NCBI GenBank assembly: GCA_027314025.1
Contig: DAHVCP010000058.1
Location: 25,711-89,710, forward strand
Direction of reading: 5' to 3'
Length of the DNA stretch: 64,000 nt
Source of the DNA: Acidobacteriota bacterium
GTDB lineage: Bacteria > Acidobacteriota > Terriglobia > Terriglobales > SCQP01
Part shown: one piece after another, positions 6,500 to 48,061 of the stretch
How positions within the stretch are numbered: the first letter of the stretch is position 1
How the letters are laid out: each line of letters begins with the position of its first letter
Translations under genes and position numbers: made by a program
The notes under the pieces: generated by a model
Told to the model about the DNA's origin: nothing
The model's input: the letters and a program-made list of their open reading frames with translations, nothing else
Database searches by the model: none

Positions 6500-6742
6500 G
6501 CTGACTCCTCGCATCCTCGGCCGGTCCCTAGCCCTGGCGCCGCGCACGCGTTGCGCTCCCACCGCCTGGCCCGCAACATCGCGCGAGGGGGAATGCCGCA
6601 CCCGCCGCGCCCGCCCGCGCATTTGAGCCTCGATCGGCCCACCCAGCGCCCCGCGGGCGGCTGCTTTCGTGCCGGCGATGGTTGCCGCATTTGCCCACAA
6701 ATAGGGGATAGCGGCGGGAAAACCAGACGGCTACATTCTCCT

Positions 6743-6758
6743 CAGTGTGCTCACACTG
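6743..6758. promoter_or_regulatory. 7+7 inverted repeat CAGTGTG-ct-CACACTG just upstream of the RBS of the beta-helix gene (operator or leader hairpin candidate)
   Basis: Read directly. It ends 3 nt before the GGAGG at 6761-6765 that serves ATG 6771. Confidence 0.3.
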
Positions 6759-6770
6759 GCGGAGGATTCC

Positions 6771-8153
6771 ATGCGAATGCGATTGGGGTGGGTTCTGGCG
6801 GCAACGGTATTGGGAGCAGTGCTCGCGGCGCCACGGGCCGTGGCGGCGAACTTATGCGTCCAGCCCAGCGGCGCCAACGGCTGCTCGGCGACCATACAGG
6901 GCGCGGTGGCGCAAGCCAAGGCGGGTGACGTGATTTACGTGGCGCCGGGCGTCTACCGGGAAGCGGTCACCATCGGCGTGCCGGTGGCGCTGATCGGCGC
7001 CGGGGCCGATGCGACGACCATTGACGCCACCGGATTGGCGCACGGTGTTTTCGTGGATGGCTACGATCACCCCGGGCTGACGGGGGTGACCGTGCAGGGC
7101 TTCACGATCAAAGGCGCTCTCTACGAGGGGGTGCTGGTGGTCAGCGCCGCGGATGTGATCGTCCGCGACAACCACGTGATCCACAACGACACCGTGCCCG
7201 GCGCCGTATTCGCCGCCAAAACCTACACCGGCTGCCCCGGCCAGCCGGGCAGCGGCGTATATGAAACGGATGAAACCGGCGACTGTGGCGGCGGGGTGCA
7301 TCTGGTGGGAGCGGTGGGCGCGATCGTCAGCGGCAACCTCATTACCGGCAATGCGGACGGCATTTTGGTCAGCGACGAAACCGGCGAAAGCCGCGCCAAT
7401 CTCCTGGCCAACAACGTGGTCATGGACAATCCGCTTGAGTGCGGTATCGTCCTGGCCTCCCATCCGCCCAGCGGCAAAACCGCGCCCCCGTTCGGCCCCC
7501 ATTTTGGCGTGGACGGCAACACGGTGCTCGGGAACCTTTCGCAAAATAACGGCGTCCAGGTAGGCGGCTCCGGCGTGGGCCTATTTTCCGATGGCGCCGG
7601 CCCGGGCAAGGTGAGCGGCAACGTGGTCGTGGACAATCGCTTGATTCACAACGGCCTCGGCGGCGTGGCCCTGCACACGCACGTGGGACCGGCCTTTGGG
7701 CTGCCCGCCGATGACATGAATGGCAACCAAATTATCGGCAACTACATCGCCGGCAACCTGGCCGACCAGGCGGACACGGCCACGCCGGGGCCGGTGGGCA
7801 TCAACATCAACAGCGGCGGAGGCGGATCGCCGGTGATGGGCACCGTGATTGCCCGCAACACCATCCGGGACGAAGCGGTGGACGTGGCGGTGAACACGCC
7901 GGCGTTGGTCGGCGTCCACCTGAATAACCTGCTCGGAGGCCAGACCGGGGTGGCCGACGTTTGCGCGCTCGACGGGGCCACGATGTGCGCCGGCGCCATC
8001 GCGGCTGCGCAGAATTACTGGGGCTGCCCGGCCGGTCCCGGCGCGCACGGCTGCTCCACCGCGAGCGGCGGCGACATTACCTATGCGCCGTGGCTGCTGC
8101 GGCCCGCAACGCCGCCGGGACGGCCGAATCAGGACCAGCACGGGCGGCGCTGA
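6771..8153 (+). CDS. Secreted right-handed parallel beta-helix repeat protein (NosD/CASH-like)
   Basis: Signal peptide MRMRLGWVLAATVLGAVLAAPRAVAA. N-terminus IQGAVAQAKAGDVIYVAPGVYREAVTI, then repeated G-x-x-V/I-x-x-N turns typical of pectate-lyase-fold proteins. Confidence 0.75.
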   Translation: MRMRLGWVLAATVLGAVLAAPRAVAANLCVQPSGANGCSATIQGAVAQAKAGDVIYVAPGVYREAVTIGVPVALIGAGADATTIDATGLAHGVFVDGYDHPGLTGVTVQGFTIKGALYEGVLVVSAADVIVRDNHVIHNDTVPGAVFAAKTYTGCPGQPGSGVYETDETGDCGGGVHLVGAVGAIVSGNLITGNADGILVSDETGESRANLLANNVVMDNPLECGIVLASHPPSGKTAPPFGPHFGVDGNTVLGNLSQNNGVQVGGSGVGLFSDGAGPGKVSGNVVVDNRLIHNGLGGVALHTHVGPAFGLPADDMNGNQIIGNYIAGNLADQADTATPGPVGININSGGGGSPVMGTVIARNTIRDEAVDVAVNTPALVGVHLNNLLGGQTGVADVCALDGATMCAGAIAAAQNYWGCPAGPGAHGCSTASGGDITYAPWLLRPATPPGRPNQDQHGRR

Positions 8154-8160
8154 GACGAAC

Positions 8161-8186
8161 GCCGGAAAAAACCGGGGCCAAATTCC
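8161..8186 (-). repeat. Copy of the dispersed GGAATTT+hairpin intergenic motif (reverse orientation)
   Basis: The plus strand reads GCCGG-aaaaaa-CCGGGGCCAAATTCC. It starts 8 nt after the stop of the beta-helix gene. Its reverse complement, GGAATTTGGCCCCGGttttttCCGGC, resembles 14380-14403. Confidence 0.4.
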
Positions 8187-8347
8187 GCCGCTCGCCGCCG
8201 CTCAATCCCGATTGGGAACGCTGCGCCGCGGAGATGGTGCATGCGCGTGGCCGTGGTGCGTTCGCGGAGCCCGCAAGAGTGCAATTTTGCTGCCGTTGCC
8301 GGCCTGGAATGGTAGCTTAGAAGGGCGGCGTTTGGCGCGGCGAACTC

Positions 8348-9247
8348 ATGAAAGTTGCATTCTTGGGAACTGGGATCATGGGTGGTCCCATGGCCAGCAA
8401 TCTGATCAAGGCCGGCCATGAGGTCACGATTTGGAACCGCAGCGCGGAGAAGGCGCAGCGGATTCAAGACGCGGTTGGCGGACGCGTGGCGGTTTCGCCG
8501 GCGGACGCGGCCGCCGACAGCCAGATCGTTTGGATCTGCGTCAGCGACACAGAAGCGGTGGAACGGGTGGTGCTGGCCGAGGATGGCATTTTAGGGGTGG
8601 CGCGGCCGGGACTGCTGGTGGCGGATTCGAGCACGATTTCACCCACCGCCAGCCGCGCGCTGGCCAAGCGCATTCGCGAGCGCGGCGGGGAATGGGTGGA
8701 TTGCCCCGTGACCGGCTCCAAACGGGGGGCGGAAGAAGGCAAGCTGGTGTTCATCGTGGGCGGTGAAGGCGAGGCCGTGGAGAAGCTGGAGCCGCTGTTT
8801 CAGGTGATGGGCCAGCGCGTGATCCACGTCGGTGGCATCGGCATGGGGCTGTCCGCCAAGCTGGCGATGAACCTGAACATCGCCTTGATCTTCGAAGGGC
8901 TGGCGGAAGGCTTGGTGCTGGCGCAGAAGGCGGGCGTGAGCATGCGGCAAATGCTGGACATTATCGGCGCCACCATGCTGCGCTCCGGCGTGAGCGAGTA
9001 CAAGGGGCCGTTCTTGGCGCGGCGGGACTTCAGCCCGAACTTTCCCCTGCATCTGATGCTGAAGGACATCCGCCTGATGCTGGAGTATGCGCGGGAGCTG
9101 CGGGTGAAGCTGCCGGCGCTGGAAACCGTCGAAGAGGTGTATGCGGTGGCGGCGGACGAGGGCCTGAGCGACGCCGATTATGCGGCGACGCTGACCCTGC
9201 TGGAAAAATGGGCCGGTATCAGCGCCCCGGCGGAAAACCCCGCGTAG
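8348..9247 (+). CDS. NAD(P)-dependent beta-hydroxyacid dehydrogenase (3-hydroxyisobutyrate / 2-hydroxy-3-oxopropionate reductase family)
   Basis: MKVAFLGTGIMGGPMASNLIKAGHEVTIWNRS Rossmann N-terminus, then DCPVTGS..GAEEGKL and a C-terminal 6-PGDH-like helical domain. Confidence 0.88.
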   Translation: MKVAFLGTGIMGGPMASNLIKAGHEVTIWNRSAEKAQRIQDAVGGRVAVSPADAAADSQIVWICVSDTEAVERVVLAEDGILGVARPGLLVADSSTISPTASRALAKRIRERGGEWVDCPVTGSKRGAEEGKLVFIVGGEGEAVEKLEPLFQVMGQRVIHVGGIGMGLSAKLAMNLNIALIFEGLAEGLVLAQKAGVSMRQMLDIIGATMLRSGVSEYKGPFLARRDFSPNFPLHLMLKDIRLMLEYARELRVKLPALETVEEVYAVAADEGLSDADYAATLTLLEKWAGISAPAENPA

Positions 9248-15847: not shown

Positions 15848-15931
15848 ATTCGCGGAGGCGGCGGCGGCGCGGCCGCCCGCGCAGCGAACCGCCATCCCGG
15901 GAAAATCCACGAACGCGTGCGAGGAACGACG

Positions 15932-18388
15932 ATGATGCGCAAACTGGCGAACTGCTCTTCCCTGCTGTTGATGCTAGCGATGATGCTGGCCGTGGCGCCC
16001 GCGGCGCGGGCGCAGGATGCGCCGGCCAAGATTCCGGACATCGGCTGGCAGCGCGGCATCGGCGTGCCGCCGGCAGATCCCGGCCACGCCAAGGACCATC
16101 CGATGATTGACGACGGCTACTTCAACGGAGCGCCGGTAGGGGGCTTTGGCGCGGGAACGATCGGCCGCAGCTACAGCGGGGATTTCGTGCGTTATCACCT
16201 CAAGATCGGGGCGCACAAATACGGCAATATTCCGTCCAATCAATTCGCCATCTTCACCCAGACCGCCGGCGGCAAGCGCTATGCGCAGGCGCTATGGACC
16301 GGCCAGCCACAAGTGTTGAAAAGCTGGAATTGGCGCTACCCGGTCGGCGGCGGCGATTACCATGCGCTCTATCCCAAGTCTTGGTTCGTGTACCGCAACG
16401 CCCAACTGCCGATCCAGGCGACGGTGGAGCAATTCTCGCCCATCCTGCCCAACAACTACCGGGAGACGAGCTACCCGGTGGCGCTTTACAACTGGACCCT
16501 GCACAACCCCACCAGCAAGCCGGTGAAGGTGGGCATCTTGTTTTCTTGGACCAACATGGTCGGCTGGTTCCGCAACTTCTCGCACGACTTGGACCAGAAC
16601 TCGACCGACGACTATGACACCGTGCGCAGCCAAATGACGCCGGCGGGGCGGATGGTGGGGGTGGTTTTCAACCGGCGGCGCTTCGGACCGGTCACCCAGG
16701 ATTGGGATGGCGAATACGCCATCGCGTCCTTGGATTTGCCGGGGGTCAAGATCAGCACGCACGCGACGTTTTTGGCGGATGGCAACGGCGGGGTGATTTG
16801 GCGGAGCTTTTCCCGCACCGGGGCCCTGGACAATGGCGGGCCGAACTGGACCTCCAGCGGTGAGGCGCTTGCCGGCGCGCTGGCGGCCACGGTGACCCTG
16901 GCGCCGGGCCAGACGCGGGTGATCCCGATGGTGCTGGCGTGGGATTTGCCGCGGGCGCAGTTCGGCGACGGCACGCAATGGTTCCGGCGGTACACGGCTT
17001 TCTTTGGCGCTAGCGGGCAAAACGCCTGGCGCATCGCGGCCGACGGCCTGCGGCACGACGCGCAATGGAGCGCGGCGATTGACCGCTGGCAGGCGCCGTA
17101 CATCGCCGATCACTCCACCCCGGCCTGGTACCGCGGCATGTTGTTCAACGAGATGTACGACCTGGCCGACGGCGGCACCCTGTGGACCAACGGCAGCCAT
17201 CCGGCGCGGCCCGGGGCGGCGCCTCCGCTCCCGAGCGCGGCGCGGGCGCGCAACGTGGGCAAGTTCACCTATATGGAGTGCTTCGACTATCCGTTCTACT
17301 CCACGCTGGACGTCAGGTTTTACGGCTCGATGGCGCTGGTGTATTGGTGGCCAAGGCTGGACAAGGCGGTCATGGACACATTCGCCGATAGCGTGAAGCA
17401 AAGCTTGACGACGGTGCGGCGGGTGCAATGGTCGCAGAAGCTGGCGCCGCGGAAGCTGCGCGGCGCGGTTCCGCACGACCTGGGCGCGCCGGATGAAGAC
17501 CCGCTGATCGCCTTCAACAACTACGACTGGCAAAACGTAAACATCTGGAAAGACCTAAACACAAAATATGTGTTGCTGGTCTGGCGGGACTATTATCTGA
17601 CCGGACAAAAGGACCGGCGGTTCTTGGCCTACAACTGGCCTTCGGTGGTGCTGGCGCTCGATTATCTGCAACGGTTCGACACCCAGCATCTGGATTTGCC
17701 CGAGAACAGCGGCGTTCCGGACCAGACCTACGATGTCTGGCCGATGCGCGGCGTCAGCGCCTACTGCGGCGGATTGTGGCTGGCGGCGTTGAAGGCAGCG
17801 GTCAAGATGGGCGACGCGCTGGGCCACCCGGCGGCGGCGGCGAAGTTCGAGCGCTGGTTTCGGACCGGGCAGAAGAATTATGAGCGGCTGTTGTGGAATG
17901 GGCGGTATTTCAATTTCGATACCGGCAGCCCCTACAAGAACAACGTGATGGCGGACCAATTGTGCGGCCAATGGTATGCCGACATCACCGGCCTGGGCGC
18001 GATCGTGCCGCCGGCGGAGGTGAAGAAAGCCCTGCGCACGATCTTCCGGCTGAATGTCATGGATTTCGAGCAGGGCCGGATGGGCGCGGTGAATGGCATC
18101 GAACCTGATGGACAGTTGCTGCACAGCAACGAGCAGGTGCAGGAAGTGTGGACGGGCGTCACCTTCGGGCTGGCGTAGTTTTACCTGTCGGAAGGCATGC
18201 CGCGCCGGGCGTTCGCCACCGCCAAGGGCATCTACAACGTGGTGTACAGCCGGGGGTATTGGTTCCGGACGCCGGAGGCTTGGAACGACACGGGCAATTT
18301 TCGCGCCTCCATGTACATGCGCCCGCTGGCGATCTGGGCCATGCAGATTTCCCTCCAGCAACACCACGAGGAGCGGGCCGGGCGATAA
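15932..18388 (+). pseudogene. GH116 beta-glucosidase / non-lysosomal glucosylceramidase (GBA2-type), interrupted by one in-frame TAG at 18176-18178
   Basis: ORF 15917..18178 ends ...EVWTGVTFGLA*. The same frame continues FYLSEGMPRRAFATAKGIY...YMRPLAIWAMQ to the stop at 18386-18388. This matches the conserved GBA2 C-terminus as I recall it (VWTGV.YGLAATMIQEGL...YMRPLSIWAMQ). The start is ATGATG at 15932, after GAGGA. Confidence 0.75.
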
Positions 18389-27282: not shown

Positions 27283-29151
27283 GTGCCCAGCCCCGACCGG
27301 AAACAATTGATTCCCGCCCTGCATAACATCGCCACCCAGCTGCGGATTGATTCTATCCAGGCCACCACGGCTGCCGGCAGCGGCCACCCCACCAGTTCCA
27401 TGTCGGCGGCCGAGATCATGGCGGCGCTGTTCTTTCATGTCCTGCGGTTGGACGTCCAGGATCCGGCGCGGGCGGAAAACGACAAATTCGTCCTCTCGAA
27501 AGGGCATGCGGCGCCGGTCCTGTATGCCGCCTGGGCGGAGCTGGGATTGTTCCCGCGCGAGCATTTGCTGACGCTGCGCAAGTTTGATTCCGACCTGGAA
27601 GGGCACCCCACGCCAATTCTGAAATTTGTCTCCGTGCCCACCGGCTCGCTGGGGCAGGGACTGCCCGTGGGACTGGGCATGGCGTTGGCGGCGCGGGTGG
27701 AAGAGCAGCCCTACCGCAGCTATGTGCTGATGGGCGATGGGGAAACGGCGGAAGGTTCGGTCTGGGAGGCGGCGGAGGTAGCCAGCTTCTATGGCGTGGA
27801 CAATCTCTGCGCCATCGTGGATGTCAACCGGTTGGGGCAAAGCCAGCCGACGATGCTGCAACACCAGATGGGGGTGTATCAGCAGCGCTGGGCGGCATTC
27901 GGCTGGAACGTCTTGGTGGTGGATGGGCACGATCTGGATCAGTTGCTAGGCGCCTTCGAGCAGGCCGCGGCGACCCAAGGCCGGCCCAGCGTGATCCTGG
28001 CGGAAACGAAAAAAGGCCGCGGCGTGTCGTTTTTGGAAGACAAGGAAGGCTGGCACGGCAAGGCGCTGAATAAAGAGGAAGCCGAGGCGGCGGTCAAGGA
28101 GTTGCAGGCGCAGTTTGTCCCCAGCGAGGGCGCCAAACCGATGCCGGCGGCGCCCGCCGCGGCACGGAAGGCGGCGGCCAAAACGGCGGCCCTGCCCGCG
28201 CCCAAATTCGACAAGCCGATGGCCACGCGGGAGGCGTTTGGCTTGGCGCTGGCCGCGCTGGGCAAGCTGGATGGCCGGGTGGTGGCGCTAGACGGCGACG
28301 TCAAGAATTCGACCTTCACCGAGGACTTCCAGCAGATCGCGCCCAACCGCTTCTTCGAAGGCTATATCGCCGAGCAAAACATGACCGGCATGGGCATGGG
28401 CATGGCGGCGGCGGGCAAGATTCCCTTCCTTTCGACCTTCGCCTGCTTCTTGACCCGGGCGGCGGATTTCATCCGCCTGGCGGCGCTGGCCAAGTCCAAT
28501 TTGAAGATCGTGGGCACGCACGCCGGGGTATCCATCGGCGAGGACGGCTCCTCGCAGATGGGTTTGGAGGATTTGGCCCTGTTCCGGGCGACGCCGGAGT
28601 CCCTGGTGCTGTATCCCAGCGATCCGGTGGCGACCTGGCGGGCGGTGGAACTGGCGGCGGGACATCAGGGCCTGGCCTACATTCGTACCGGCCGGCCGAA
28701 GAGCCCGCTGATCTATGGGGCGGAGGAGAGCTTCGCCATCGGCAAGGCCAAGGTGCTGCGGCAGAGCGCGGGCGACGCCGTCACCGTGGTGGCCGCGGGC
28801 GTGACGCTGCCGGAGGCGCTGAAGGCGCACGATGAATTGAAAAAGGAAGGCATCGCCATCCGCGTGGTGGATCTGTTCAGCGTGCGGCCCGTGGACCAGG
28901 CGGCGCTGCTGGCTTGCGCCCAGGCCACGCATAATACGATCTTGACGGTCGAGGACCATTACCGCGCCGGCGGCATCGGCGATGCGGTGGCGGAAGCCGT
29001 GGAGGGCGCCGGCGTCAGGGTGCTGCGGCTGGCGATCGAACACATCCCGCACAGCGGCACGGCGCAGCAACTGCTGCACGCGTACAAAATTGACGCCGAC
29101 GCGATCATGGAGCAGGTGCGGGCGGCCGTGCCCGCGGCGGCAAGGCGATAG
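27283..29151 (+). CDS. tkt: Transketolase (about 620-aa single-chain type)
   Basis: AAGSGHPTSSMSAAEIMAALFF...DKFVLSKGHAAPVLYA...LGQGLPVGLGMA...GDGETAEGSVWEA. The GTG start follows AGGAGG. Confidence 0.93.
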   Translation: MPSPDRKQLIPALHNIATQLRIDSIQATTAAGSGHPTSSMSAAEIMAALFFHVLRLDVQDPARAENDKFVLSKGHAAPVLYAAWAELGLFPREHLLTLRKFDSDLEGHPTPILKFVSVPTGSLGQGLPVGLGMALAARVEEQPYRSYVLMGDGETAEGSVWEAAEVASFYGVDNLCAIVDVNRLGQSQPTMLQHQMGVYQQRWAAFGWNVLVVDGHDLDQLLGAFEQAAATQGRPSVILAETKKGRGVSFLEDKEGWHGKALNKEEAEAAVKELQAQFVPSEGAKPMPAAPAAARKAAAKTAALPAPKFDKPMATREAFGLALAALGKLDGRVVALDGDVKNSTFTEDFQQIAPNRFFEGYIAEQNMTGMGMGMAAAGKIPFLSTFACFLTRAADFIRLAALAKSNLKIVGTHAGVSIGEDGSSQMGLEDLALFRATPESLVLYPSDPVATWRAVELAAGHQGLAYIRTGRPKSPLIYGAEESFAIGKAKVLRQSAGDAVTVVAAGVTLPEALKAHDELKKEGIAIRVVDLFSVRPVDQAALLACAQATHNTILTVEDHYRAGGIGDAVAEAVEGAGVRVLRLAIEHIPHSGTAQQLLHAYKIDADAIMEQVRAAVPAAARR

Positions 29152-34560: not shown

Positions 34561-35289
34561 TTACCCTCCAAAGCGGAACAGATCCGCCCCTTGCTCGGCC
34601 GCCGCCCGCGCCCGAGCGAGCCGATCCGGCGTGCCAATGTCCACCAGCGGCCCGTCGGCCGCCAGCGCCGCCATGCGGCCATCCAGGTACTGGGGCAGAA
34701 TCTCGCGCTCCAGGGAGACGGCGCGGCCGGCGGGAACGGCGGCCAGCACCTCGCGGCGGAATAGATAAATGCCGGCGTTATGCATCGCCGCCCCGGCGAC
34801 GGCCTGCTTTTCGGCAAATGCGCGCACCCGTCCGCCGGCGTCCACCCGCAGTGAGCCGGCGTCGTCGCGATCCTCGGCTGTGGCCGAGACCAGGACAATC
34901 TCCGCGCCGGTGGCTCGCTGCCGCGCCAGCAACCCGGCGCCGTCGAACGGCGCCCAGCTGTCACCATTGAGCGCCAAAACGAACGCGCCGCGCAGCTGCG
35001 CCAGCGCCAGACGCAGCGCGCCGGCCGTGCCCAGCGGTTCGGTCTCCTCCGAGAACAACACTTCCGTCCCACAGTCGCGGCGGCGGAAAAAATCCCGGAT
35101 CTGTTCCCTGCCCTGGCCGGTGCACAACACCACGCGCGGCACGCCTTGCCGCGCCAGCGCGGCGATCAGCCCCGCCAAAAAGGGCTGACCGCCGAGGGCC
35201 ACCATCGGCTTGGGCACGCCCAGCTTCAGGGCTTGCAGCCGCGTGCCAAAGCCGCCGCACAAAATGGCGGCGTCAGGAGTGGTAGCCAT
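34561..35289 (-). CDS. Sugar-1-phosphate nucleotidyltransferase (HddC/ManC-N-like)
   Basis: The internal ATG at 35289 gives MATTPDAAILCGGFGTRLQALKLGVPKPMVALGGQPFL...EPLGTAGAL. The upstream part of ORF 34561..35499 overlaps the GT4 3' end and looks non-coding. Confidence 0.75.
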   Translation of the reverse strand: MATTPDAAILCGGFGTRLQALKLGVPKPMVALGGQPFLAGLIAALARQGVPRVVLCTGQGREQIRDFFRRRDCGTEVLFSEETEPLGTAGALRLALAQLRGAFVLALNGDSWAPFDGAGLLARQRATGAEIVLVSATAEDRDDAGSLRVDAGGRVRAFAEKQAVAGAAMHNAGIYLFRREVLAAVPAGRAVSLEREILPQYLDGRMAALAADGPLVDIGTPDRLARARAAAEQGADLFRFGG

Positions 35290-36580
35290 CGTGCGGATTC
35301 TGCGTTGGCGGGGACGCTCTGGCCACGCCGGCGGCAGCCGCCGCCGCTGTTGGCGGCGCGGCATCGCCGCCCTCGCCGTGCCATCGCTCCAAACAACTGG
35401 AGACGAAATCCGCCATGCGCGGATAGAAGCGGCTGACATCAAAGCGCTCCGCTTGCTCCCGCAACACCGCGGGAGAGAATTCCGCCTCGTGTTCCTCAAA
35501 AGCGGTCATGGCAGCCACCAGGCCGTCCGCGCTCTGCTCCGGAAAGAATACCCCGGTCGCGTCCGGGGGCATCGGCTGCCCGAGCCACCAACCCCGCACG
35601 GTTTCCAGGGCGCCACCCCGGCCGAAGGCGATCACCGGTGCGCCGCTGGCCTGCGCCTCGATCGGCGTAACGCCTTGATCCTCCTCGCCCGGGAATAACA
35701 GCGCGCGGCACCGGCTGTAATGCTCGCGTACGGCGGCGCCGGAACAACCACCCAGCATACGCACGGTTGAGCCCGCACGCCGCCGTAGCGCCGCCGCCTC
35801 TTCACCGGAACCGATGACCACCAACTGCCGGCCTAGGCGGTTGCAGGCCTCGATGGCCAGGTCCACGCGTTTATACCCGACCAGGCGCGAGACCACCAGA
35901 TAGAAGGGCTCCCGCTGCACGGCGGCCTGGAACGACCCAGTGTCGATCGGACAGTAAATGACCGTGGCGTCCCGCCGGTAGAACTTCCGGATCCTGCGGG
36001 CGCTGGTGAGGCTATTGGTGGCGAAGAAATCCGGACGGGATGCCGTGGCCAGGTCCCACTGCCGCACATAATGGCTGGACAGCGCGAAGACAGCGCGGCC
36101 CAGGGCGCCACCCGGCGCCTGGCGGCGGTATTCCGGGTACATCTCCCACAAATAACGCATCGGGGAATGGCAATAACAGATATGGCACGTCTTGGTGCCG
36201 GTCACGACGCCCTTGGCAGGGCCCGAGTCGGAGCTGATGACCAGGTCATAACCGCTCAGATCAAATTGCTCCAAAGCCAGTGGAAATAACGGCAGGAACA
36301 GGCGGTGGTAGCGGCGTGAGCCGGGCACCTTCTGCAGCCAGGAGGTGGTCAGCTTCCGGCCGCGCAGCCGTATTGGAATCCCTTCGGGCCGGGCAGTGAG
36401 GGCAAACAGGTCGGCCTGCGGGAAAAGTTCGGCGAGGTGGGCGACGAACCCCTCGCCGCCGCCCTGGCGAACAAACCAATGGTGAACGATCGCCACTCGC
36501 AGGTGGGCAAAGCGCCGGATCAAATCGGGCAACGGAGTTGGGCCGGATCGAGCCCGGTCCGCATTAGGCGTGATGGCCAT
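35273..36580 (-). CDS. Glycosyltransferase family 4 (GT-B)
   Basis: LRVAIVHHWFVRQGGGE N-domain and ...ALLFPGEEDQGVTPIEAQASGAPVIAFGRGGALETV C-domain (E-x7-E-like). Confidence 0.85.
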   Translation of the reverse strand: MAITPNADRARSGPTPLPDLIRRFAHLRVAIVHHWFVRQGGGEGFVAHLAELFPQADLFALTARPEGIPIRLRGRKLTTSWLQKVPGSRRYHRLFLPLFPLALEQFDLSGYDLVISSDSGPAKGVVTGTKTCHICYCHSPMRYLWEMYPEYRRQAPGGALGRAVFALSSHYVRQWDLATASRPDFFATNSLTSARRIRKFYRRDATVIYCPIDTGSFQAAVQREPFYLVVSRLVGYKRVDLAIEACNRLGRQLVVIGSGEEAAALRRRAGSTVRMLGGCSGAAVREHYSRCRALLFPGEEDQGVTPIEAQASGAPVIAFGRGGALETVRGWWLGQPMPPDATGVFFPEQSADGLVAAMTAFEEHEAEFSPAVLREQAERFDVSRFYPRMADFVSSCLERWHGEGGDAAPPTAAAAAAGVARASPPTQNPHDGYHS

Positions 36581-37610
36581 AGACGCGCTGGCGGTCCCGC
36601 GCCAGGTCGGCGGAAAACGGCTCGCGCCGCTCGTAGTGAATCAGCTCGCTGCCGGAAGCGGAAAAGCGGAAGGGAACCAAAAGCAGCCGGTCGAGCGCCT
36701 GGCGCACCCGGGCTTGGCACTCCGGGGGCACGAAAAACAGCATGAAACCGCCGCCCCCCGCGCCCAGCAGCTTGCCGCCCAGGGCGCCCGCCTGGCAGGC
36801 GGTGGCATAGATTTCATCCAGGGCGCTATTGCTGATGTTGTCAGCCAGTTGCCGCTTCAGCCGCCAAGTCTCGTCAAGCAATGCGCCGAACTCCGCCAGC
36901 GGACGGGCGCTGTCGGTCAATACTCTGGCCGCCCTGTCCACCAGCTGCCGCATCGCCGCCAGTTCGTCCTGGCGCTGCGGCGTGTTGGCGATCTGTTGCC
37001 GCGCGATCTCCGAGGCGGTGCGGGTAAAGCCGGTGAAGAAGAGCAGGAAGTGGCGCTGGAGCTGTGCCAGACGCTCCGGCGCCGTGACGACGGGCTGCAC
37101 GCTCACCGTTCCGTCCTGGGCGAAGCGGATCAGGTTGAAGCCGCCGTGGGCGGCAAACGCCTGATCCTGCGCGCCCACGTTCTCCCGCAACAGCACCTGC
37201 TCCACATGGATCGCCTCGGCGGCCAGCTCCGCGCGGTCGCGCATTTCGCCGCGCAGGGCATGGAGCGCGTGGAGCAAGCCCACGGTAAAGGCGGAACTGG
37301 TCCCCAGCCCGGTGCGCGCCGGCAAGTCGGCGTCGTGGTGAATCTCGACCCCGTCGCCCATGCCGAGATGGGTGAGGCAGGCGCGGATGGAGGGATGCTC
37401 GAAATCGCAGTTGGCCGCCACGTTTTCGATCTTGGAATAGATGGCGCGGCTGTGATGGGCGAAAAATGGCGGCAGGTAGCGGCAGGTGATGTAGCAATAC
37501 TTGTCAATCGCCGCCCCCAGCACGGCCCCGCCGTGCTCGCGGTACCAGATCGGATAATCGGTCCCTCCGCCAAAGAACGAGATGCGAAACGGCGTGCGCG
37601 TAATGACCAT
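36564..37610 (-). CDS. GHMP-family sugar kinase (HddA-like, D-glycero-D-manno-heptose-7-P / sugar-1-kinase type)
   Basis: TRTPFRISFFGGGTDYPIWY..., PARTGLGTSSAFTVGLLHAL (GHMP motif 2), GKLLGAGGGGFMLFF (motif 3). Confidence 0.85.
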   Translation of the reverse strand: MVITRTPFRISFFGGGTDYPIWYREHGGAVLGAAIDKYCYITCRYLPPFFAHHSRAIYSKIENVAANCDFEHPSIRACLTHLGMGDGVEIHHDADLPARTGLGTSSAFTVGLLHALHALRGEMRDRAELAAEAIHVEQVLLRENVGAQDQAFAAHGGFNLIRFAQDGTVSVQPVVTAPERLAQLQRHFLLFFTGFTRTASEIARQQIANTPQRQDELAAMRQLVDRAARVLTDSARPLAEFGALLDETWRLKRQLADNISNSALDEIYATACQAGALGGKLLGAGGGGFMLFFVPPECQARVRQALDRLLLVPFRFSASGSELIHYERREPFSADLARDRQRVYGHHA

Positions 37611-37617
37611 CGGTATA

Positions 37618-38487
37618 TTATCCCCGTGCGGCGGACCGTGACTGCAAATAGCGGGCTAGGGTGTCTTCCCACTGCGGCATCGGCGCCAGACCGGCAGCCC
37701 GCAACTGCTCCTTGGCCAGCACGGAATAGTGGGGCCGGCGGACGGAACTCGCAAAGGCGGCGGAATCCACCGGCGTCAGGTCCGGGTGCAGGCCGGCGAG
37801 CGCAAAGATTTTGGCCGCGAACTCGAACCAGGAACACTGTCCCTCATTGGTGGCGTGGTAGATGCCAAAGCGCTCGGTGGCCAGCAACTCGATCACCCTC
37901 GCCGCGAGATCCACCGTATATGTGGGCGTCAGCACCTGGTCATGAACGACCCGGATCCGCTCGCCCGCGGCGGCTTTTTTCAACATCGTCTCCACGAAGT
38001 TGCCGCCTTTGCCCGCGCTCCCAGCCACCCCGTACAAGCCGGTCGTGCGCACGATGAAATAGCGCTGGCAATTGGCCGCCAGCAGGTATTCTCCCGCCAA
38101 CTTGGACATTCCATAGGCGTTCAGCGGCCGCGGTCGGTCGCTCTCTAGGTAGGGCGTCCGCTGCTCGCCGTCGAATACGTAATCGGTGCTGAAGTGCATC
38201 AGCATCGCACCGTGGCGCTGGCAGGCCCGGGCCAGATTCAGCGCGCCCAAGGCATTGGTGGCGAAGGCCTCTTCCGGCTGGCGCTCGCAGGTCTCCACAT
38301 GATGGAACGCCGCCGTGCTGATGACGGCCTCCGGGCGCTCGGCCGCCACCTGCGCCTCCACCGCCGCGGCGTCGCGCACGTCCAGTTCGGCATGCGTGCG
38401 CGGCACGACCACATGGCCGTCCGCTTGGGCGGCGGCCTCCAGATCGCGGCCCAGCTGGCCCCGCGCCCCGATCAGCACAATCCTCAC
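37618..38487 (-). CDS. rfbD: dTDP-4-dehydrorhamnose reductase
   Basis: GTG 38487 gives VRIVLIGARGQLGRDL. Then FSTDYVFDG and NAYGMSKLAGE, the RmlD signatures. The 67-codon N-terminal extension of the ORF is antisense to a beta-helix gene fragment. Confidence 0.85.
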   Translation of the reverse strand: MRIVLIGARGQLGRDLEAAAQADGHVVVPRTHAELDVRDAAAVEAQVAAERPEAVISTAAFHHVETCERQPEEAFATNALGALNLARACQRHGAMLMHFSTDYVFDGEQRTPYLESDRPRPLNAYGMSKLAGEYLLAANCQRYFIVRTTGLYGVAGSAGKGGNFVETMLKKAAAGERIRVVHDQVLTPTYTVDLAARVIELLATERFGIYHATNEGQCSWFEFAAKIFALAGLHPDLTPVDSAAFASSVRRPHYSVLAKEQLRAAGLAPMPQWEDTLARYLQSRSAARG

Positions 38488-38529
38488 TCCGCAGCCGCCC
38501 TCGCCGCAGCCAAGGGGCCTGACCCCATC

Positions 38530-38716
38530 TGTCGCATCTCCCAATAAGGGTAACCCGCCACCCGACGGTGCTAGATCGGCGGCTAATGTCCCCGCGCGGC
38601 AGCCGCTAGCGCGGGGAGCTGGGGCCTGCGCCCCCGGCGCCGTCACCGTCAGCGTCCGTGCCGTCGTCGCCGCCACCCCCGCCGCCACGGCCTACGCCGT
38701 TCGCGTCCTGCCATAG
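38530..38716 (+). pseudogene. Promoterless 3'-terminal fragment of a beta-helix (P1-like) gene
   Basis: The frame of ORF 38315..38716 ends ...APGAVTVSVRAVVAATPAATAYAVRVLP*. The full-length gene at 42122 ends ...SPGTVSVKLCAVVAARPAATVFQVRVLP*. Nucleotide similarity continues a few tens of nt past both TAG stops. The 5' boundary is approximate. Confidence 0.55.
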
Positions 38717-38798
38717 CGCCCCGCACGCGCCCGGCCCGCCTTCCCAAAACGGCAACCGGCCCCAGGGCGGCGGCGACGGCACAGGATTGGGAACCGTC

Positions 38799-38820
38799 GG
38801 CCGAAAAGCCGCGAAAGGGT
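38799..38820 (-). repeat. Partial copy (hairpin core) of the dispersed intergenic motif, reverse orientation
   Basis: The reverse complement CCCTTTCGCGGCTTTTCGGCC compares with TTTCGCGGCCTTTCCGCGCC at 14384-14403. Confidence 0.35.
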
Positions 38821-39172
38821 GCCTCCCGTCAGGGCAGGCGCGGCTTACCTTCGGCCCATGAAGGACGCGCCGGCATTCTGGGCCCAGCCGCAAACACGGC
38901 CCCCCGCCGCCCACCACACCCCGACCGCGCCGCCCCAAGAGCGGGGCGCGGCGGCGGGTCATTTACCCAAGCTCATCGACTGCCGCTGGTGCGGCGCTGT
39001 CGTCCCGCGCGAGGAAGCGGAGTGCTGCGAACGCTGCGGCTGGACCATCTCATATTGCAAAATGTGCGCGGCAACGCAGCCCCTGGGCATGGTATTCGCG
39101 CCTGCGCCAGCGCGGACAGGGAACCAGCCGGGCGAAGCGGCGGCTGGCCCAGCCGCCTCCCGCCACCAGGCG

Positions 39173-39583
39173 CTAGGTTCGCCCCGTCACGCCGCCTGCG
39201 CCGCCCGCCCGCAAGTCCGAGCTCGGCACCAGACCATAGCCGCCGAGGTCAAATTGCTCCACAGCCAGCGGGAACAGCGGCATGAACAGCCGGTGCCACC
39301 GCCGCGCCCCGGGATCGTGCTGGAGAAGCGACGTGGTCAGGCGCCGCCCCGCCAGCTCCGGCGCAAGCGCCTCCGGCCGCGCCGCCAGCACGAACAAATC
39401 CGCCTGCGGGAACAGCCGCGCCACATGCTCCACGAATCGCTCGCCCCCGCCGCGCCGGATAAACCAATGATGCACAATGGCCACCCGTAGGTGGGCAAAG
39501 CGGCGCACCAGCTCCGCCGGCGGGGCCGGCCCGCCGCTCGCGGCGGCGGCCTCGGGGGATGGGCGTTCGATCCGCTGCGGCAT
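39173..39583 (-). pseudogene. Truncated N-terminal fragment (about 135 of 435 codons) of a GT4 paralogous to 35273..36580
   Basis: The fragment reads ELVRRFAHLRVAIVHHWFIRRGGGERFVEHVARLFPQADLF...HRLFMPLFPLAVEQFDLGGYGLV. The full gene reads DLIRRFAHLRVAIVHHWFVRQGGGEGFVAHLAELFPQADLF...HRLFLPLFPLALEQFDLSGYDLV. About two-thirds are identical by hand alignment. The fragment stops at 39173, before the catalytic C-domain. Confidence 0.7.
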
Positions 39584-39878
39584 CAGCAAGCCTCCAGAAC
39601 CGCGCGCGTGCGCGCGGGCATTGAGAAGGGTAACCGTCGCCCACCAAAAAAGCGGGCGCAGCTGCGCGCCCCAAGTCGCCCTAAGGCGCCGCAGCAGACT
39701 AACCCGCAATGCGCCGAGATGCAACGTGCGGCGCAGCCTTCGGCAGCCGCCGAACGCGCCGCAGCCACCTCTCCGCGCCCCGGAGCACGGGCGCCCTGGG
39801 GCCCGGCTGCAGGGGGCGCGGAGCCGTCCGCCCGCCTGCCAGGGCTACGCTCCGGAAATTGGCGGGGTATAAAGAAAA

Positions 39879-42122
39879 ATGGGAATTTCAGCCATGACCA
39901 ATCGCTTGCCGCGCCTCCTCGCCGCCGCCCTCCTAGCCTCGACTCCGACACTCGCCCCCGCCGCAAGGGGGCCGGTACATTGCGAAGCAGCGGGCGGCAC
40001 CGTTGCTACCCGCCTAGACCGGAAGACCGGCGTATTGGCCGTCGGGACACTGTCCGGACGCGGCGTCATCGGCATCGACACCGCCGCGCTGACCGTTCGC
40101 AGCGGGCCGAAACACGAACCCAGGCGGACAGGCGCCCCGGTTCTCATTGGGGACGGGACCGCCACGGAGGCGACGGTGCTGACCAGCTCGACGCGCGCGA
40201 TCGGCGGCCCCGGCCACCGCCGGGCCACGGCTGACCTCCGGCGCCCAAGCGGCGGACGGCTAGACGCGGCGCACGGGGGCGCTGCGGTCCTCACCTCCAG
40301 GTGGTCGGGCCCCAGGGACGGGCTCGCTGGCGCCAGCGCCAGCGGCAGCAGCGCCGCGCAAATCGAGGGCAGGCGCGACGGCAGCGAGGTGGGACACAGC
40401 TGGACGCGCGGCGCCCGCCTGCCGACTGCCCGAACCAATGGGCCGACGAACGCGCCCACCGCCGGGAATGTCAAGGGCGTCCTCTACGCGGACCAATTCC
40501 CCGGGGCCGATATTGGCGCCCGGGTTAACGCGGCAGCTGAGGCCCTGCCCGGCGGCTGCGGCACGGTGGTGATACCCGCCGGCACCTACGCCTACACGAC
40601 CACGATCGTCAAGCCCCGCTGCGTCATACTCAGGGGGCAAGGCGCCGGTGCTGGCGGGGCACGGGGCGGCACCGTCCTCCGGTGGACGCCCCCATCGGGC
40701 GTCGCGCTGGCCATCGGCGACGCCGCAGGGCCCAGCGTCTACCCGATCGGCGGGGTGTCGAACCTGACCCTGGTCGGCCCGGGGCGCACCACCGAGACTT
40801 ACGGCCTTTGGCTCGGAGGGGACCCACTCGGCGCCGTTCTCCCCCCGGGCGCGTTCGCCGAGTCCCAGGGCATCCGCGGTCTCCGGATCACCCAGTTCGG
40901 CACCGGCGTCGAATGGGCAAACAACGCTTGGGTCGAGCGTTTCGATCACGATGCGATCTTCGCAAATGGCGTCGGCGTAAACGCCACGGCGGGGGCGGTG
41001 AACAGCGCCGAGCAAAACGACTTCGTCGCCGACAATATCTTTAACAACGCGGGTGCCGCGATCGCCGCGAATGAGGACTTCAACTTTGTCGGAACCAGCT
41101 TCGACTTCAACGGCGCGCCGTCGGTCGGCGCGGAATTCACGGACTGTCACTTCGAGCAACAGTCCGGACTCTTCATCAAGGGCCCCGGGGCGACGATCAG
41201 CGGGGGTTTCGCGTTCCTAGACGCGACATCGGGCAAAGACAGGGCCCTCTTCGAAGCGTCAGGCCCGAGGCCGGGCGAGTGGCATATCTCGGGCCTATAC
41301 GTGGGCTCGAACCACCCTGTCAGCGAGGTTTTGGACTGGCGGCTGCCTGCGGGCTCAAAGCTGTTTATCTCGGACCTCCGCGGTAACGGGGGCCAGGAGA
41401 TCGAAGCCCCCGTCAGCCCAAATTTCGTCTGGACCTACGGCAGCTACGTTAACGCTATGCTGTACGGCTCCTGGGCGAAGCCAGCGTACCTCGGGGCATC
41501 CCTGGATACCGGAGGCGAAATCGCTGGCGACTTCGCCAGCGCGGGAAATTACAGCCTCGAGCTCCTAGACGACGCCAATGGATCGGACGCCAACCCAGGC
41601 AAATTCCTGCGCGTCACCGGAGCGGACGGCGACCTCCAGGTCCTCAACAGCGCATTCACGAAGCCCATCCTCGACCTTTCCGACAGCGGCGCGCTAAGCT
41701 GGGGAGGGGCGGCCGCCATCGCCAGCAGCGCCCACACAGGCACGGGCAGCCTGGTGCTGGCGAGCTCGCCCAGGCTCAGCGGGTTGCCGAGGCTACCCCC
41801 AAAATACGTCGTGGGGGGTAAGACGATCGCTCAGCCGTCCGAGCCCGGCGAGCTCGCCTTGACCAGCCAGCTGCCGCTGGCCGCCACCAGCGGCAGCATC
41901 GGGGGCGTGTCGTTAGCGCCCGGTAATTGCGCCAGCGGGACGGTCGCCGTCCCCGGCGCTGCCAAGGCCGACGCGGTCGTCGTGACCCCCGAAACGTACC
42001 CTGGCGACGGCGTCTATTGGGGGGGGTACGTCGGCTCCCCGGGAACCGTCTCCGTGAAGCTTTGCGCTGTGGTCGCGGCCAGACCCGCCGCAACTGTGTT
42101 CCAGGTGCGCGTGCTGCCATAG
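39879..42122 (+). CDS. Secreted beta-helix protein P1 (Pectate_lyase_3 / tailspike-depolymerase-like) with a C-terminal 2-Cys beta-sandwich domain
   Basis: Signal-like MTNRLPRLLAAALLASTPTLAPAARG. Motif GVLYADQFPGADIGARVNAAAEALPGGCGTVVIPAGTY. Long collinear similarity to 42242..43879. Residues about 30-190 are low-complexity, so the start is uncertain. Confidence 0.7.
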   Translation: MGISAMTNRLPRLLAAALLASTPTLAPAARGPVHCEAAGGTVATRLDRKTGVLAVGTLSGRGVIGIDTAALTVRSGPKHEPRRTGAPVLIGDGTATEATVLTSSTRAIGGPGHRRATADLRRPSGGRLDAAHGGAAVLTSRWSGPRDGLAGASASGSSAAQIEGRRDGSEVGHSWTRGARLPTARTNGPTNAPTAGNVKGVLYADQFPGADIGARVNAAAEALPGGCGTVVIPAGTYAYTTTIVKPRCVILRGQGAGAGGARGGTVLRWTPPSGVALAIGDAAGPSVYPIGGVSNLTLVGPGRTTETYGLWLGGDPLGAVLPPGAFAESQGIRGLRITQFGTGVEWANNAWVERFDHDAIFANGVGVNATAGAVNSAEQNDFVADNIFNNAGAAIAANEDFNFVGTSFDFNGAPSVGAEFTDCHFEQQSGLFIKGPGATISGGFAFLDATSGKDRALFEASGPRPGEWHISGLYVGSNHPVSEVLDWRLPAGSKLFISDLRGNGGQEIEAPVSPNFVWTYGSYVNAMLYGSWAKPAYLGASLDTGGEIAGDFASAGNYSLELLDDANGSDANPGKFLRVTGADGDLQVLNSAFTKPILDLSDSGALSWGGAAAIASSAHTGTGSLVLASSPRLSGLPRLPPKYVVGGKTIAQPSEPGELALTSQLPLAATSGSIGGVSLAPGNCASGTVAVPGAAKADAVVVTPETYPGDGVYWGGYVGSPGTVSVKLCAVVAARPAATVFQVRVLP

Positions 42123-46564: not shown

Positions 46565-48061
46565 TCAACGCCGCAGTCGGAGCACGACCTCGACTTCGCA
46601 ACGACTGGAGCCGGGAAAAAGCGTCAGCGTAACGGGCATCTGCACCCCGACGGGAATGCTAACCCCCCAAGAAGCCGCCCCACTGGCCGGGGCCTCCAGA
46701 ACGGCAACGGCGGAGCCGCTCGCGAGGTGAACCGTCGCTCCCGCGCATGAACCCGCGGTGCGCTGGATCCTTACCAATGTCACCTCCGCGCCAAAACGCG
46801 GTATCCATGTAAATCCGGCGCCGCCCGACCGGAGGGGAAGCTGCAACGTGCGTGCTGCCGCCGCCCCGGCGGCCGCACCCTCGCGAAGCGCGGGCGCCTT
46901 GGCCGACCGGTAGCGGCGCCGAGCATGGATCAACCGGCGCGGCGGGCGAGGGGCAAGCGGCGGGGGGGAGACGTCGAACTGCCCAGGCCACACCTCGGCC
47001 GCGTAGGTGCCCCCCCCAGACACGTATGCATCGCAGCCAGGGACAATCGCGTCGGGCGCGTACGCGTCGAGCATCGCCCCGGGGCCCTCCTGGTAGATGC
47101 ATGCCGACTGGTTGGCATTACCAGCGCTGTTCCAACCCCATATGGACATCATGCCGCTGTTTTCAACGTAGGCCGACGGGGCGAAGACCTGGCCGGAGGT
47201 ATTCGAGAACTGAGGTGCGATCAGGACAGTGCCGGGGGAGGTGGAGTTATTGAGAAACGGGATCGCCATGTTCCCAGCTACATCTTCGAAATGGGGCATG
47301 AAGAACGTGTTGATTCCCGATTCGGTGCAGACCTGCACCCCGTCGAAGGAGTCCCCGGTGAAGGTGGCATTAAAGTATTGCCCGTCCAGTTTCAATTGGC
47401 AAGTGCTCGAGCCGTTAGGTATATTATTTGTGAAAAACGTGTCAATAAAACGAACGCTCTCACCAGCGTTAGTAAGGCCAGGCAAGAACTCGAGGAGCCG
47501 ATCGCCGTCGGTAATCATGCAATCGCTCACTTCCACCCCCCAGGTGTTCTCCCCCAACACCACCCCTTTATCGAAACAACTAATATCTACGCCTTTGACC
47601 ACCGCGCCCTGTGCGCCGTACTGCCCGCCGAAAAATACCGCCGTCGAGGCATCGCTGCCCACGGCGCAGTCGCCATGGGCGTCACCGCCAGAGCCGAAAA
47701 TGGCGACCCGTTCCAGCCCCCATCGGCCGTAAGCAAAATTGCAGCAGGCCACGCCTCCTGCATTGAATGTAAACATGGTGCCAGTGGTAGGTAGCCACTG
47801 GATCTTCGTGCCGCCGACCCCTTTGATCATCGCGTACTTGCCAGGGGTTGATATCAGCACTGGCGTCGTGCATTGGTACCCCGCCGGCGACCCTGCGGCC
47901 GGGACAACGATTGTGCCGCCCCCATTCGGCAGCGCCGCGTACGCTGCGTTGATCTGCGCGCAGACGTCCGCCCCGCTGAACTGCGTGGCGTTGAGCACGC
48001 CGACCGGCGATTGGGCCGCCGCCGCGGCAGCGAGCAAGATTAAGGCAACCAACGTCCGCAT
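46565..48061 (-). CDS. Secreted beta-helix protein P3, a more distant paralog of P1/P2
   Basis: Signal MRTLVALILLAAAAAAQ. GVLNATQFSGADVCAQINAAYAALPNGGGTIVVPAAG matches the P1 N-motif. It has a C-terminal 2-Cys domain (SCAGATVHL...SSRCEVEVVL) and noticeably AT-richer stretches. Confidence 0.75.
   Translation of the reverse strand: MRTLVALILLAAAAAAQSPVGVLNATQFSGADVCAQINAAYAALPNGGGTIVVPAAGSPAGYQCTTPVLISTPGKYAMIKGVGGTKIQWLPTTGTMFTFNAGGVACCNFAYGRWGLERVAIFGSGGDAHGDCAVGSDASTAVFFGGQYGAQGAVVKGVDISCFDKGVVLGENTWGVEVSDCMITDGDRLLEFLPGLTNAGESVRFIDTFFTNNIPNGSSTCQLKLDGQYFNATFTGDSFDGVQVCTESGINTFFMPHFEDVAGNMAIPFLNNSTSPGTVLIAPQFSNTSGQVFAPSAYVENSGMMSIWGWNSAGNANQSACIYQEGPGAMLDAYAPDAIVPGCDAYVSGGGTYAAEVWPGQFDVSPPPLAPRPPRRLIHARRRYRSAKAPALREGAAAGAAAARTLQLPLRSGGAGFTWIPRFGAEVTLVRIQRTAGSCAGATVHLASGSAVAVLEAPASGAASWGVSIPVGVQMPVTLTLFPGSSRCEVEVVLRLRR

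Follow-up and report, generated by a model that had tools for sequence, protein, structure and literature searches.

The exopolysaccharide locus of an uncultured Terriglobales bacterium (Acidobacteriota) contains, between the sugar-nucleotide gene rmlD and a beta-helix gene denoted P1, a 1.4-kb region (38488..39878) that appears to be a mosaic of four dead gene pieces, produced by rearrangements at the junction of the conserved and variable parts of the locus. We put the probability of this reading at roughly 0.82. Coordinates refer to the window, that is, the entire 64,000-nucleotide (nt) stretch of contig DAHVCP010000058.1 (assembly GCA_027314025.1) that was analysed. A previous reading of the window (hereafter, the original prediction) had proposed a recombination scar at this position with three components, namely, the 3' end of a P1-like gene, the 5' third of a family-4 glycosyltransferase (GT4) gene, and a cysteine-rich (Cys-rich) open reading frame (ORF) that was considered doubtful. 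Comparison with related loci bears out the scar, in that no intact gene of a known family lies between rmlD and P1, and adds to this list a fourth remnant, a piece of another glycosyltransferase gene (Table 1).

The locus belongs to the Wzx/Wzy type of exopolysaccharide clusters and lies on the minus strand, where genes for a Wzc-like kinase, a Wza-like exporter, an initiating transferase, a Wzy polymerase, a flippase and glycosyltransferases are followed by a sugar-nucleotide operon. The sugar-nucleotide block, consisting of rmlA-D and the genes for a GHMP-type heptose kinase and a nucleotidyltransferase, is the conserved part of the locus, and the glycan-assembly side of the junction is the variable part. 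The region was compared with two assemblies of the same species, L007 (GCA_027314945.1) and L019 (GCA_027314005.1), and with the loci of more distant relatives (L013/L014, L008/L009, L015, L016, L017, L020, L010 and L012), where each of the pairs L008/L009 and L013/L014 may be one sample assembled twice. All these sequences are metagenome-derived, and by their source names the homologues would come from metagenome-assembled genomes of Terriglobales (Acidobacteriota). L007 and L019 differ from the window by 6 single-nucleotide polymorphisms (SNPs) over 21 kb and by 41 SNPs over 15 kb, respectively, none of which falls within the region. From the ABC transporter gene through rmlD and the spacer next to it, L013 and the window are collinear, with 90-93% identity.

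By comparison with the intact copies of the relatives, the glycosyltransferase fragment, denoted GT4', is the resident orthologue of this site, with an internal deletion between short imperfect repeats. The fragment aligns with the first 129 residues of the intact GT4 paralog inside the sugar-nucleotide operon, at 65.6% identity over 128 amino acids (aa) in a tblastn comparison (39559..39176, minus strand; E 1.5e-54), and 299 nt are 69.6% identical by blastn (E 4e-31). In the same position as the fragment, L013 carries an intact 421-aa GT4', to the 5' end of which the fragment is 86% identical at the DNA level, and L015 carries an intact 429-aa orthologue (P0018) that has the same N-terminus and shows 87% protein identity to the fragment. 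At the DNA level, the fragment is 86-87% identical to these genes, compared with about 70% to the in-window paralog. The two similarities that the original prediction expected a blastn comparison with the GT4 and P1 regions to reveal were thus both found (for the P1 similarity, see below), and the fragment indeed begins with the predicted ATG and ends at the predicted stop. It is not, however, a plain 5' third of the gene, and the proposed duplication or gene conversion between paralogs of the locus is not supported, given its closer relationship to the genes that occupy the same site in relatives.

The limits of the deletion can be placed by alignment with L013. Window positions 36566-39212 correspond to L013 6008-8666 at 90% identity and positions 39182-39504 to L013 9514-9833 at 86%, whereas L013 8667-9513 has no counterpart in the window; the comparison with L008 agrees. 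The deletion, about 875 bp long (L013 9543..8669), takes out approximately codons 123-413 of GT4', with the window junction near 39214/39215, and a 13-nt imperfect repeat is common to the two endpoints (TCGGACTCCGGGC / TTGGATCGCGGGC). Past the junction, 8 codons are out of frame relative to the orthologue, and the window ORF resumes in the last codons of GT4' itself, ending in GVTGRT and a stop where L013 has PAATGRT and a stop. The ATG (39581-39583), the stop codon (39173-39175) and a GGAGG Shine-Dalgarno sequence are retained. Of the two properties expected of a family-4 glycosyltransferase at this site, orthology of the retained part to intact genes in the same position was found (L013 and L015), and the catalytic C-terminal Glycos_transf_1 domain is missing: the 136-aa product has no Pfam match, unlike the in-operon GT4 and the L013 orthologue, each of which matches PF00534. 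A scan of genome contigs with the fragment protein yielded, among the matches listed, only distant Terriglobia and Verrucomicrobiae genes, none of them syntenic.

The retained GT4' sequence is only mildly decayed, so that the wording of the original prediction is too strong in this respect. Among 95 conserved N-terminal codons, lineage-specific replacements number 5 in the window, 6 in L008, and 1 each in L013 and L015. Those of the window include V>D, L>P, and D>G in the YDLV motif, and those of L008 include W>R in the HHWF motif. Of the positions that are 85% conserved in the family, only 2 are altered in the window, which makes a very old deletion unlikely. The 136-aa 'hypothetical protein' of the public assemblies is the product of a deleted glycosyltransferase gene, and its ORF should not be annotated as a gene.

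The GT4' lesions of the different lineages can be set against the state of the second, in-operon GT4 gene, whose product is about 66-70% identical to that of GT4'. The in-operon gene overlaps each of its neighbours by 17 nt, and the two junctions form an imperfect direct repeat (ATGGCyAyCACkCCTrA). It is present in L016, L019 and L020, and is absent from L013, where its neighbours abut directly. Both GT4 genes can be scored in three genome types, given that the contigs of L008, L015 and L016 end before the second gene. GT4' is intact in L013, which lacks the in-operon GT4; it is internally deleted in the window, L007 and L019, and frameshifted at about codon 174 in L020, all of which possess the in-operon GT4. 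Thus, exactly one intact GT4 copy is found per genome in 3 of the 3 scorable genome types. In L008, GT4' is interrupted by an in-frame TAG (between CHSPLR and VWEMYPEY) at a tyrosine conserved in the family. From these three genome types, we infer that the loss of GT4' may have been tolerated because the gene was redundant with the in-operon GT4, which would make the one-intact-copy pattern a small, testable case of redundancy driving gene loss.

The second remnant, by its family profile and its counterparts in relatives, is the genuine C-terminus of a P1-family gene other than P1. The P1-like C-terminus ending at 38716, with similarity continuing past the stop, was correctly predicted: 18 of 28 residues match the C-terminus of P1 over 38630..38713, followed by a stop, and the DNA similarity (111 nt at 69%) runs about 20 nt beyond both stops. 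This pairwise match is modest: when genuine 141-nt segments of the window are searched for their best non-self hits, its 45.5 bits rank near the 98th percentile. It is lost from the whole-window search under composition-corrected statistics. A profile hidden Markov model (HMM) built from six P1-family C-termini matches the tail at its end positions 81-110 with E 2.6e-6 and the L013 copy of the tail with E 4.6e-8, noise beginning at E 0.15. Several members of the family end in V.VKVCAVVA.TPA...Y.VRVLP and a stop, and by the HMM the tail carries the C-terminal motif V.V..CAVVA.TPA...Y.VRVLP followed by a stop, with the family cysteine replaced by arginine in the window and retained in L013.

The original prediction had read the scar as a mark of duplication or gene conversion between paralogs of the locus, and the relationships within the family do not fit a derivation of the tail from P1. 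The tail is closer to the family member P0006 (22 of 28 residues) than to P1, and the 3' end of an L017 gene is 75.9% identical to window 38642..38724 (E 2.7e-9), to be compared with the 69% between tail and P1 and with 65% between the L017 gene and the 3' end of P1. The L017 gene, which encodes 922 aa and ends in TVTVRVCAAVSATPVATAYTVRVLP and a stop, lies 25 nt beyond an intact GT4' (417 aa) in the opposite orientation, and this arrangement, a whole P1-family gene convergent with GT4', is likely the original layout. P1-family proteins, classed as secreted beta-helix proteins although only the paralog P2 has a (weak) Pfam Beta_helix match, are 35-65% identical among the relatives. The L013 copy of the tail, PGGVTVNVCAVVAAAPAATTYAVRVLP, keeps its stop, and the L008 copy has lost 45 nt together with the stop. 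The presence of the tail in the window, L013 and L008 implies that the gene was lost before these lineages split. No similarity to the signal peptide and beta-helix body (about 550-900 aa) that would belong to the tail was detected upstream of 38630 in any frame, and rmlD begins at 38487. The 17-nt inverted repeat that brackets the stop of the tail may be a leftover of the 3' hairpin of the lost gene. We also considered, and dropped, an rmlD whose N-terminus extends across the tail, like the 355-aa gene call in L014, given that the extension is not in frame in L008.

The remnant missed by the original prediction consists of the end of the glycosyltransferase gene that precedes GT4'. In L015, 105 aa of this upstream glycosyltransferase remain, and an intact gene of 339 aa occupies the position in L017. 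The homology of the window with L008 and L015 stops at about 39620, which marks the right-hand edge of the remnants. Beyond it, a minus-strand terminator-like hairpin (39671..39654) is followed by a T-run; one such site is within chance expectation.

Table 1. Features of the region between rmlD and P1 and of the adjoining genes
Feature	Position	Strand	Description
In-operon GT4, intact paralog	35273..36580	minus	between nucleotidyltransferase and GHMP kinase genes
GHMP kinase (heptose-type)	36564-37610		neighbour of rmlD
rmlD	37618..38487	minus	Pfam RmlD_sub_bind, E 4e-91
Non-coding stretch directly upstream of rmlD	38488..38629		conserved in L013 and L008; no consistent frame by GC content at third codon positions (GC3)
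P1-family tail	38630..38716	plus	last 28 codons (APGAVTVSVRAVVAATPAATAYAVRVLP) and stop; family C-terminus HMM
17-nt inverted repeat bracketing the tail stop	38658-38674 and 38766-38782 (arms)		perfect in L013
Cys-rich ORF	38858..39490	plus	ATG 38858; 7 cysteines, three CxxC-type groups
42-nt block	38972..39013		CTCATCGACTGCCGCTGGTGCGGCGCTGTCGTCCCGCGCGAG; inside Cys-rich ORF; 41/42 identical in four lineages
GT4' (family-4 glycosyltransferase, internally deleted)	39173..39583	minus	136-aa predicted product
Upstream glycosyltransferase remnant	39583..39615	minus	last 10 codons (ARTRAVLEAC) and stop; stop overlaps GT4' start (TGATG)
Stretch between remnants and P1 start	39621..39878		no counterpart in any of the loci compared
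P1	39879..42122	plus	747 aa; no Pfam match
P2, paralog of P1	42242..43879		weak Pfam Beta_helix match

Homologies, breakpoints, lesions, and the presence or absence of genes were read from the alignments, and from these we infer an order of events as well as redundancy as a cause. The P1-family gene convergent with GT4' would have been mostly lost when the rml block came to lie adjacent to it, leaving 28 codons, before the lineages of the window, L013 and L008 split. GT4' would then have lost about 875 bp between the short imperfect repeats, along with half of its N-terminal domain and the whole catalytic C-terminal domain. The second GT4 inside the operon would have allowed the loss of GT4' to be tolerated, which could account for three separate lesions, a deletion, a stop codon and a frameshift. 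A 10-nt deletion nearby would finally have damaged the 3' end of the Cys-rich ORF. Nothing indicates a present function of the remnants, with the possible exception of the 42-nt block and the conserved spacer around it. Read in this way, the region would provide a worked example of polysaccharide-locus remodelling in an uncultured soil acidobacterium.

The Cys-rich ORF exists as predicted, starting at ATG 38858 and running antisense into GT4', with 7 cysteines instead of the 6 originally counted; calling it doubtful undersells it. Only its codons 1 to about 92 (38858..39134) are homologous to an ORF of 98-99 codons in L013 and L008, in which the start, the cysteines and the stop are kept and whose stop, a TAG common to the two, shortly precedes that of GT4'. 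The window has lost 10 nt after 39134, which puts the sequence beyond out of frame, and has TGG in place of the conserved TAG (39145-39147), so the ORF continues antisense to GT4' up to 39490. The window, L013 and L008 share an identical core of the ORF, LPKLIDCRWCGAVVPREEAECCERCGW.I.YCK.C. In L020, the ORF is broken by 2-nt and 5-nt deletions and 5 of the 7 cysteines are lost. The arrangement of the cysteines, C-x2-C ... CC-x2-C ... C-x2-C with a core of about 30 residues, resembles that of zinc-ribbon proteins (DZR, PF12773; Zn_ribbon_3, PF13248), as does the predicted beta-hairpin knuckle followed by helices: in a single-sequence AlphaFold2 model, residues 41-60 form a beta-hairpin and then helices with a predicted local distance difference test score (pLDDT) of about 79, the mean pLDDT of the model being 60. 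Unlike zinc-ribbon proteins, the ORF has neither a significant profile match nor homologues with conserved cysteine ligands, and it is damaged in 2 of 4 lineages. Searches against Pfam at E values up to 10 gave nothing significant (best 0.08-0.24; DZR 0.2), and a phmmer search of 1.84 billion representative proteins returned only 3 spurious low-complexity hits. Scans of metagenome contigs with peptide patterns of the ORF and one DNA pattern of the spacer found nothing. GC3 of the ORF is 0.80 and peaks in its frame, with an intermediate contrast between GC3 and the GC content at second positions (GC2). The ATG is not preceded by a Shine-Dalgarno sequence, the gene callers skipped the ORF in every assembly, and the ratio of nonsynonymous to synonymous substitution rates (dN/dS) did not separate its frame from the other five, there being too few substitutions.

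Inside this ORF, the 42-nt block stands out. It is present as a single copy in each locus, with no second copy in the window. In L020, genes other than those of the window replace the counterpart of 38488..38629 up to the rmlD start, homology with the window restarts at 38496, and the region is 71.5% identical to the window; the ORF is broken, yet the block is 41/42 identical. At the 14 third codon positions of the block, 1 change was seen against an expectation of about 7, which gives a rough Poisson P of about 0.006 on the assumption of four roughly equidistant lineages. The preservation of the block in L020 despite the broken ORF suggests that coding is not the sole constraint and points to a constraint acting on the nucleotide sequence itself. 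No hit to Rfam 15 was found at E <= 1 in 37500-40500, and none at the gathering score in the whole window. RNAalifold, applied to the whole spacer and to the block on both strands, gave no covariation support, the covariation terms being positive, that is, penalising. A scan for sigma-70-like promoters found none.

The JUMPStart/ops leader elements of polysaccharide operons are short (about 40 nt) conserved non-coding elements located in or upstream of the gene clusters. The likeness of the 42-nt block to these is one of position only, and the region does not contain the ops 8-mer (GGCGGTAG). Among the window genes annotated outside 1-14 kb and 46.5-51.4 kb, no paralog of NusG or RfaH was found. 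The block could be a protein-binding site, an RNA-processing or antitermination site, or the core of an orphan small zinc-binding protein under nucleotide-level constraint. Tentatively, we propose it, with or without the Cys-rich ORF, as an undescribed functional element of Acidobacteriota exopolysaccharide loci, although we think the opposite the better guess. If functional, it would add a new regulatory element or small protein to these loci, the regulation of which has, to our knowledge, been little studied in Acidobacteriota.

Several observations weigh against the interpretation of the region as a mosaic of dead pieces. The spacer differs by 3-10% from L013 and by about 12.5% from L008, so that it is not decaying freely, and third codon positions differ by 20-36% in the flanking rmlD and by 20-33% in the N-terminal part of GT4'. 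The term scar would therefore describe the origin of the spacer and not necessarily its present state. The link between GT4' loss and redundancy comes from three scorable genome types only, and both the L020 frameshift and the L008 stop codon were read from metagenome assemblies. The in-operon GT4 could have been gained here or lost in L013, the 17-nt repeat fitting either direction. Finally, at only about 66-70% identity, the two GT4 proteins may have different jobs, in which case losing GT4' might instead have altered the glycan.

The same conservation underlies the strongest competing explanation, namely, that 38488..39172 is functional, as a leader, internal promoter or processing region of the operon, as the gene of a small Cys-rich zinc-binding protein, or both. 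This explanation is compatible with a scar origin; the tail would then survive merely because it is embedded in constrained sequence. The region is 2.5 to 4 times more conserved than the synonymous sites of the flanking genes, and the near-identity of the 42-nt block across lineages, the maintenance of the start, cysteines and stop of the ORF in L013 and L008, the GC3 peak in its frame, and the hairpin-and-helix core of the AlphaFold2 model all agree with a function. So does L020, where the region is separated from rmlD and the ORF broken, and where the sequence on either side of the block has diverged. Against a protein product stand the lack of homologues and of a significant Pfam match, the missing Shine-Dalgarno sequence, the dN/dS values without frame specificity and the intermediate GC3-GC2 contrast; the block is still conserved where the ORF is frameshifted (window) or broken (L020), which argues against a constraint on coding alone. 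A regulatory role, in turn, gains nothing from the searches for Rfam families, covariation, sigma-70-like promoters or the ops element. Moreover, third positions of the GHMP kinase gene differ by only about 11% from L013, and this low divergence implies that part of the contrast between spacer and flanking genes may be due to mosaic recombination. It is possible that the block and the well-conserved spacer around it are a cis-acting element or a small gene of the locus and not debris; overall, we regard a functional region as somewhat less probable than not, and a live alternative nonetheless.

The other explanations fare worse than the mosaic of dead pieces. The 136-aa GT4' product could be a functional shortened protein whose start and original stop are retained by selection, as the intact ORF with its Shine-Dalgarno sequence, the lack of change in L007 and L019, and the small number of altered conserved positions might suggest. 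Such a protein would have to work with the entire Glycos_transf_1 domain and half of the N-terminal domain gone, and it shows an excess of lineage-specific non-conservative changes in addition to the 8 out-of-frame codons; frame restoration by accident has a chance of about 1 in 3, and other lineages inactivated the gene by different lesions. We consider this explanation improbable. Still less probable is the suggestion of the original prediction, flagged there as speculative, that the tail (and, by extension, the GT4 fragment) is a silent cassette donating sequence for antigenic variation of P1 or GT4. That paralogous pieces adjoin full-length genes is its sole support, together with the variation of P1-family proteins between relatives (35-65% identity). 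Exact identity extends over at most 9 nt between the tail and the 3' end of P1, and over at most 14 nt between the GT4 copies; such lengths are far below the requirement of RecA-type recombination. The donor would be a single 87-nt piece and not an array, older than the split of three lineages and nearer to other family members than to P1, and no recombinase was found among the annotated genes of the locus. Neither multiple copies with long identical tracts nor inverted repeats with a recombinase, nor variation, the hallmarks of silent-cassette and phase-variation systems, were observed: the scar is identical in L007 and L019. An assembly artefact, in which a chimeric contig joins unrelated pieces, comes to mind because all sequences are metagenome-derived; it is hardly credible, given that the same structure occurs in GCA_027314945.1 and GCA_027314005.1, which differ from the window elsewhere by 6 and 41 SNPs and in the scar by none, and that L013 and L008, derived from other samples, likewise contain the spacer, the tail and the Cys-rich ORF.

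Remnants at the edges of polysaccharide clusters are already well known, and the window is a new example that is resolved by its relatives. In a review of Escherichia coli O-antigen clusters, gene remnants were noted in 9 and non-coding regions in 14 of 178 serogroup clusters, and such anomalies were read as signs of fairly recent genetic events (PMC7685785). As in the O-antigen clusters of E. coli, Salmonella and Shigella, where remnants are likewise read as footprints of recombination or deletion, a truncated glycosyltransferase gene and other pieces lie at the border between rml and variable genes. Unlike in these clusters, the host is an uncultured acidobacterium of the Terriglobales, no insertion sequence or H-repeat is involved in the scar, four remnants are packed into 1.4 kb, and one of the remnants has an intact paralog elsewhere in the operon, the two following the one-intact-copy pattern. 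This pattern resembles the reciprocal loss of duplicated genes, with two paralogs of which one is intact per lineage, independent lesions, and extra amino-acid changes. It differs from the loss of recent duplicates in that the GT4 paralogs are only about 66-70% identical, only three genome types can be scored, and the shared job of the two proteins is presumed.

Further observations concern the genes around the junction. In rmlD, third codon positions differ from L013 by 20-36%, compared with only 4-16% in the adjacent GHMP kinase gene; from this difference, the conserved sugar-nucleotide block itself appears to be mosaic, rmlD having a recombination history different from that of its neighbours. 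In L012, a 271-aa ORF (1746-2561) is a fusion of C-terminal GHMP kinase sequence with N-terminal rmlD sequence and directly adjoins a P1-family gene (P0004), and window 37170-38220 has no counterpart there. By its alignment with the window, this fusion ORF represents a further deletion scar at this junction, in a different lineage. In L020, the Cys-rich region and rmlD are separated by an insertion (6390-9127) with a second gene for a dTDP-sugar isomerase-like protein, an epimerase gene and a methyltransferase gene, the last of which overlaps the rmlD start; the usual rmlC is missing between rmlB and rmlA.

The first approximately 190 residues of P1 (39879-40450) are in frame with the family members P0004 and P0009, strongly diverged from them, and 16 residues fewer. 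The coding signal in GC3 is weak up to about 40100, and the public gene call starts at 39894 (742 aa). A frameshifted N-terminus of P1 was considered and dropped, because the reading frame is kept there and the family comparison shows a 16-aa deletion instead. A third, more distant P1/P2 paralog is located at about 47200-48000 on the minus strand and matches P1 residues 200-390 at 31% identity (E 9e-12). Upstream of the locus, 15917-18178 encode a GH116-family beta-glucosidase (Pfam DUF608 and Glyco_hydr_116N) that is close to P1 in length and unrelated to it.

Of the 6 SNPs that distinguish L007 from the window, 4 cluster in a 100-nt stretch of dxs (28780-28881; dxs at 27283-29151). The window also contains three pairs of GC-rich repeats of 40-47 nt with 81-88% identity (1883-1929/9395-9441, 13138-13176/29134-29172, and 14370-14414/20739-20783). 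Several of these contain hairpins, for example, GCCCCGCC...GGCGGGGC, and the repeats may be terminator-like elements near gene ends.

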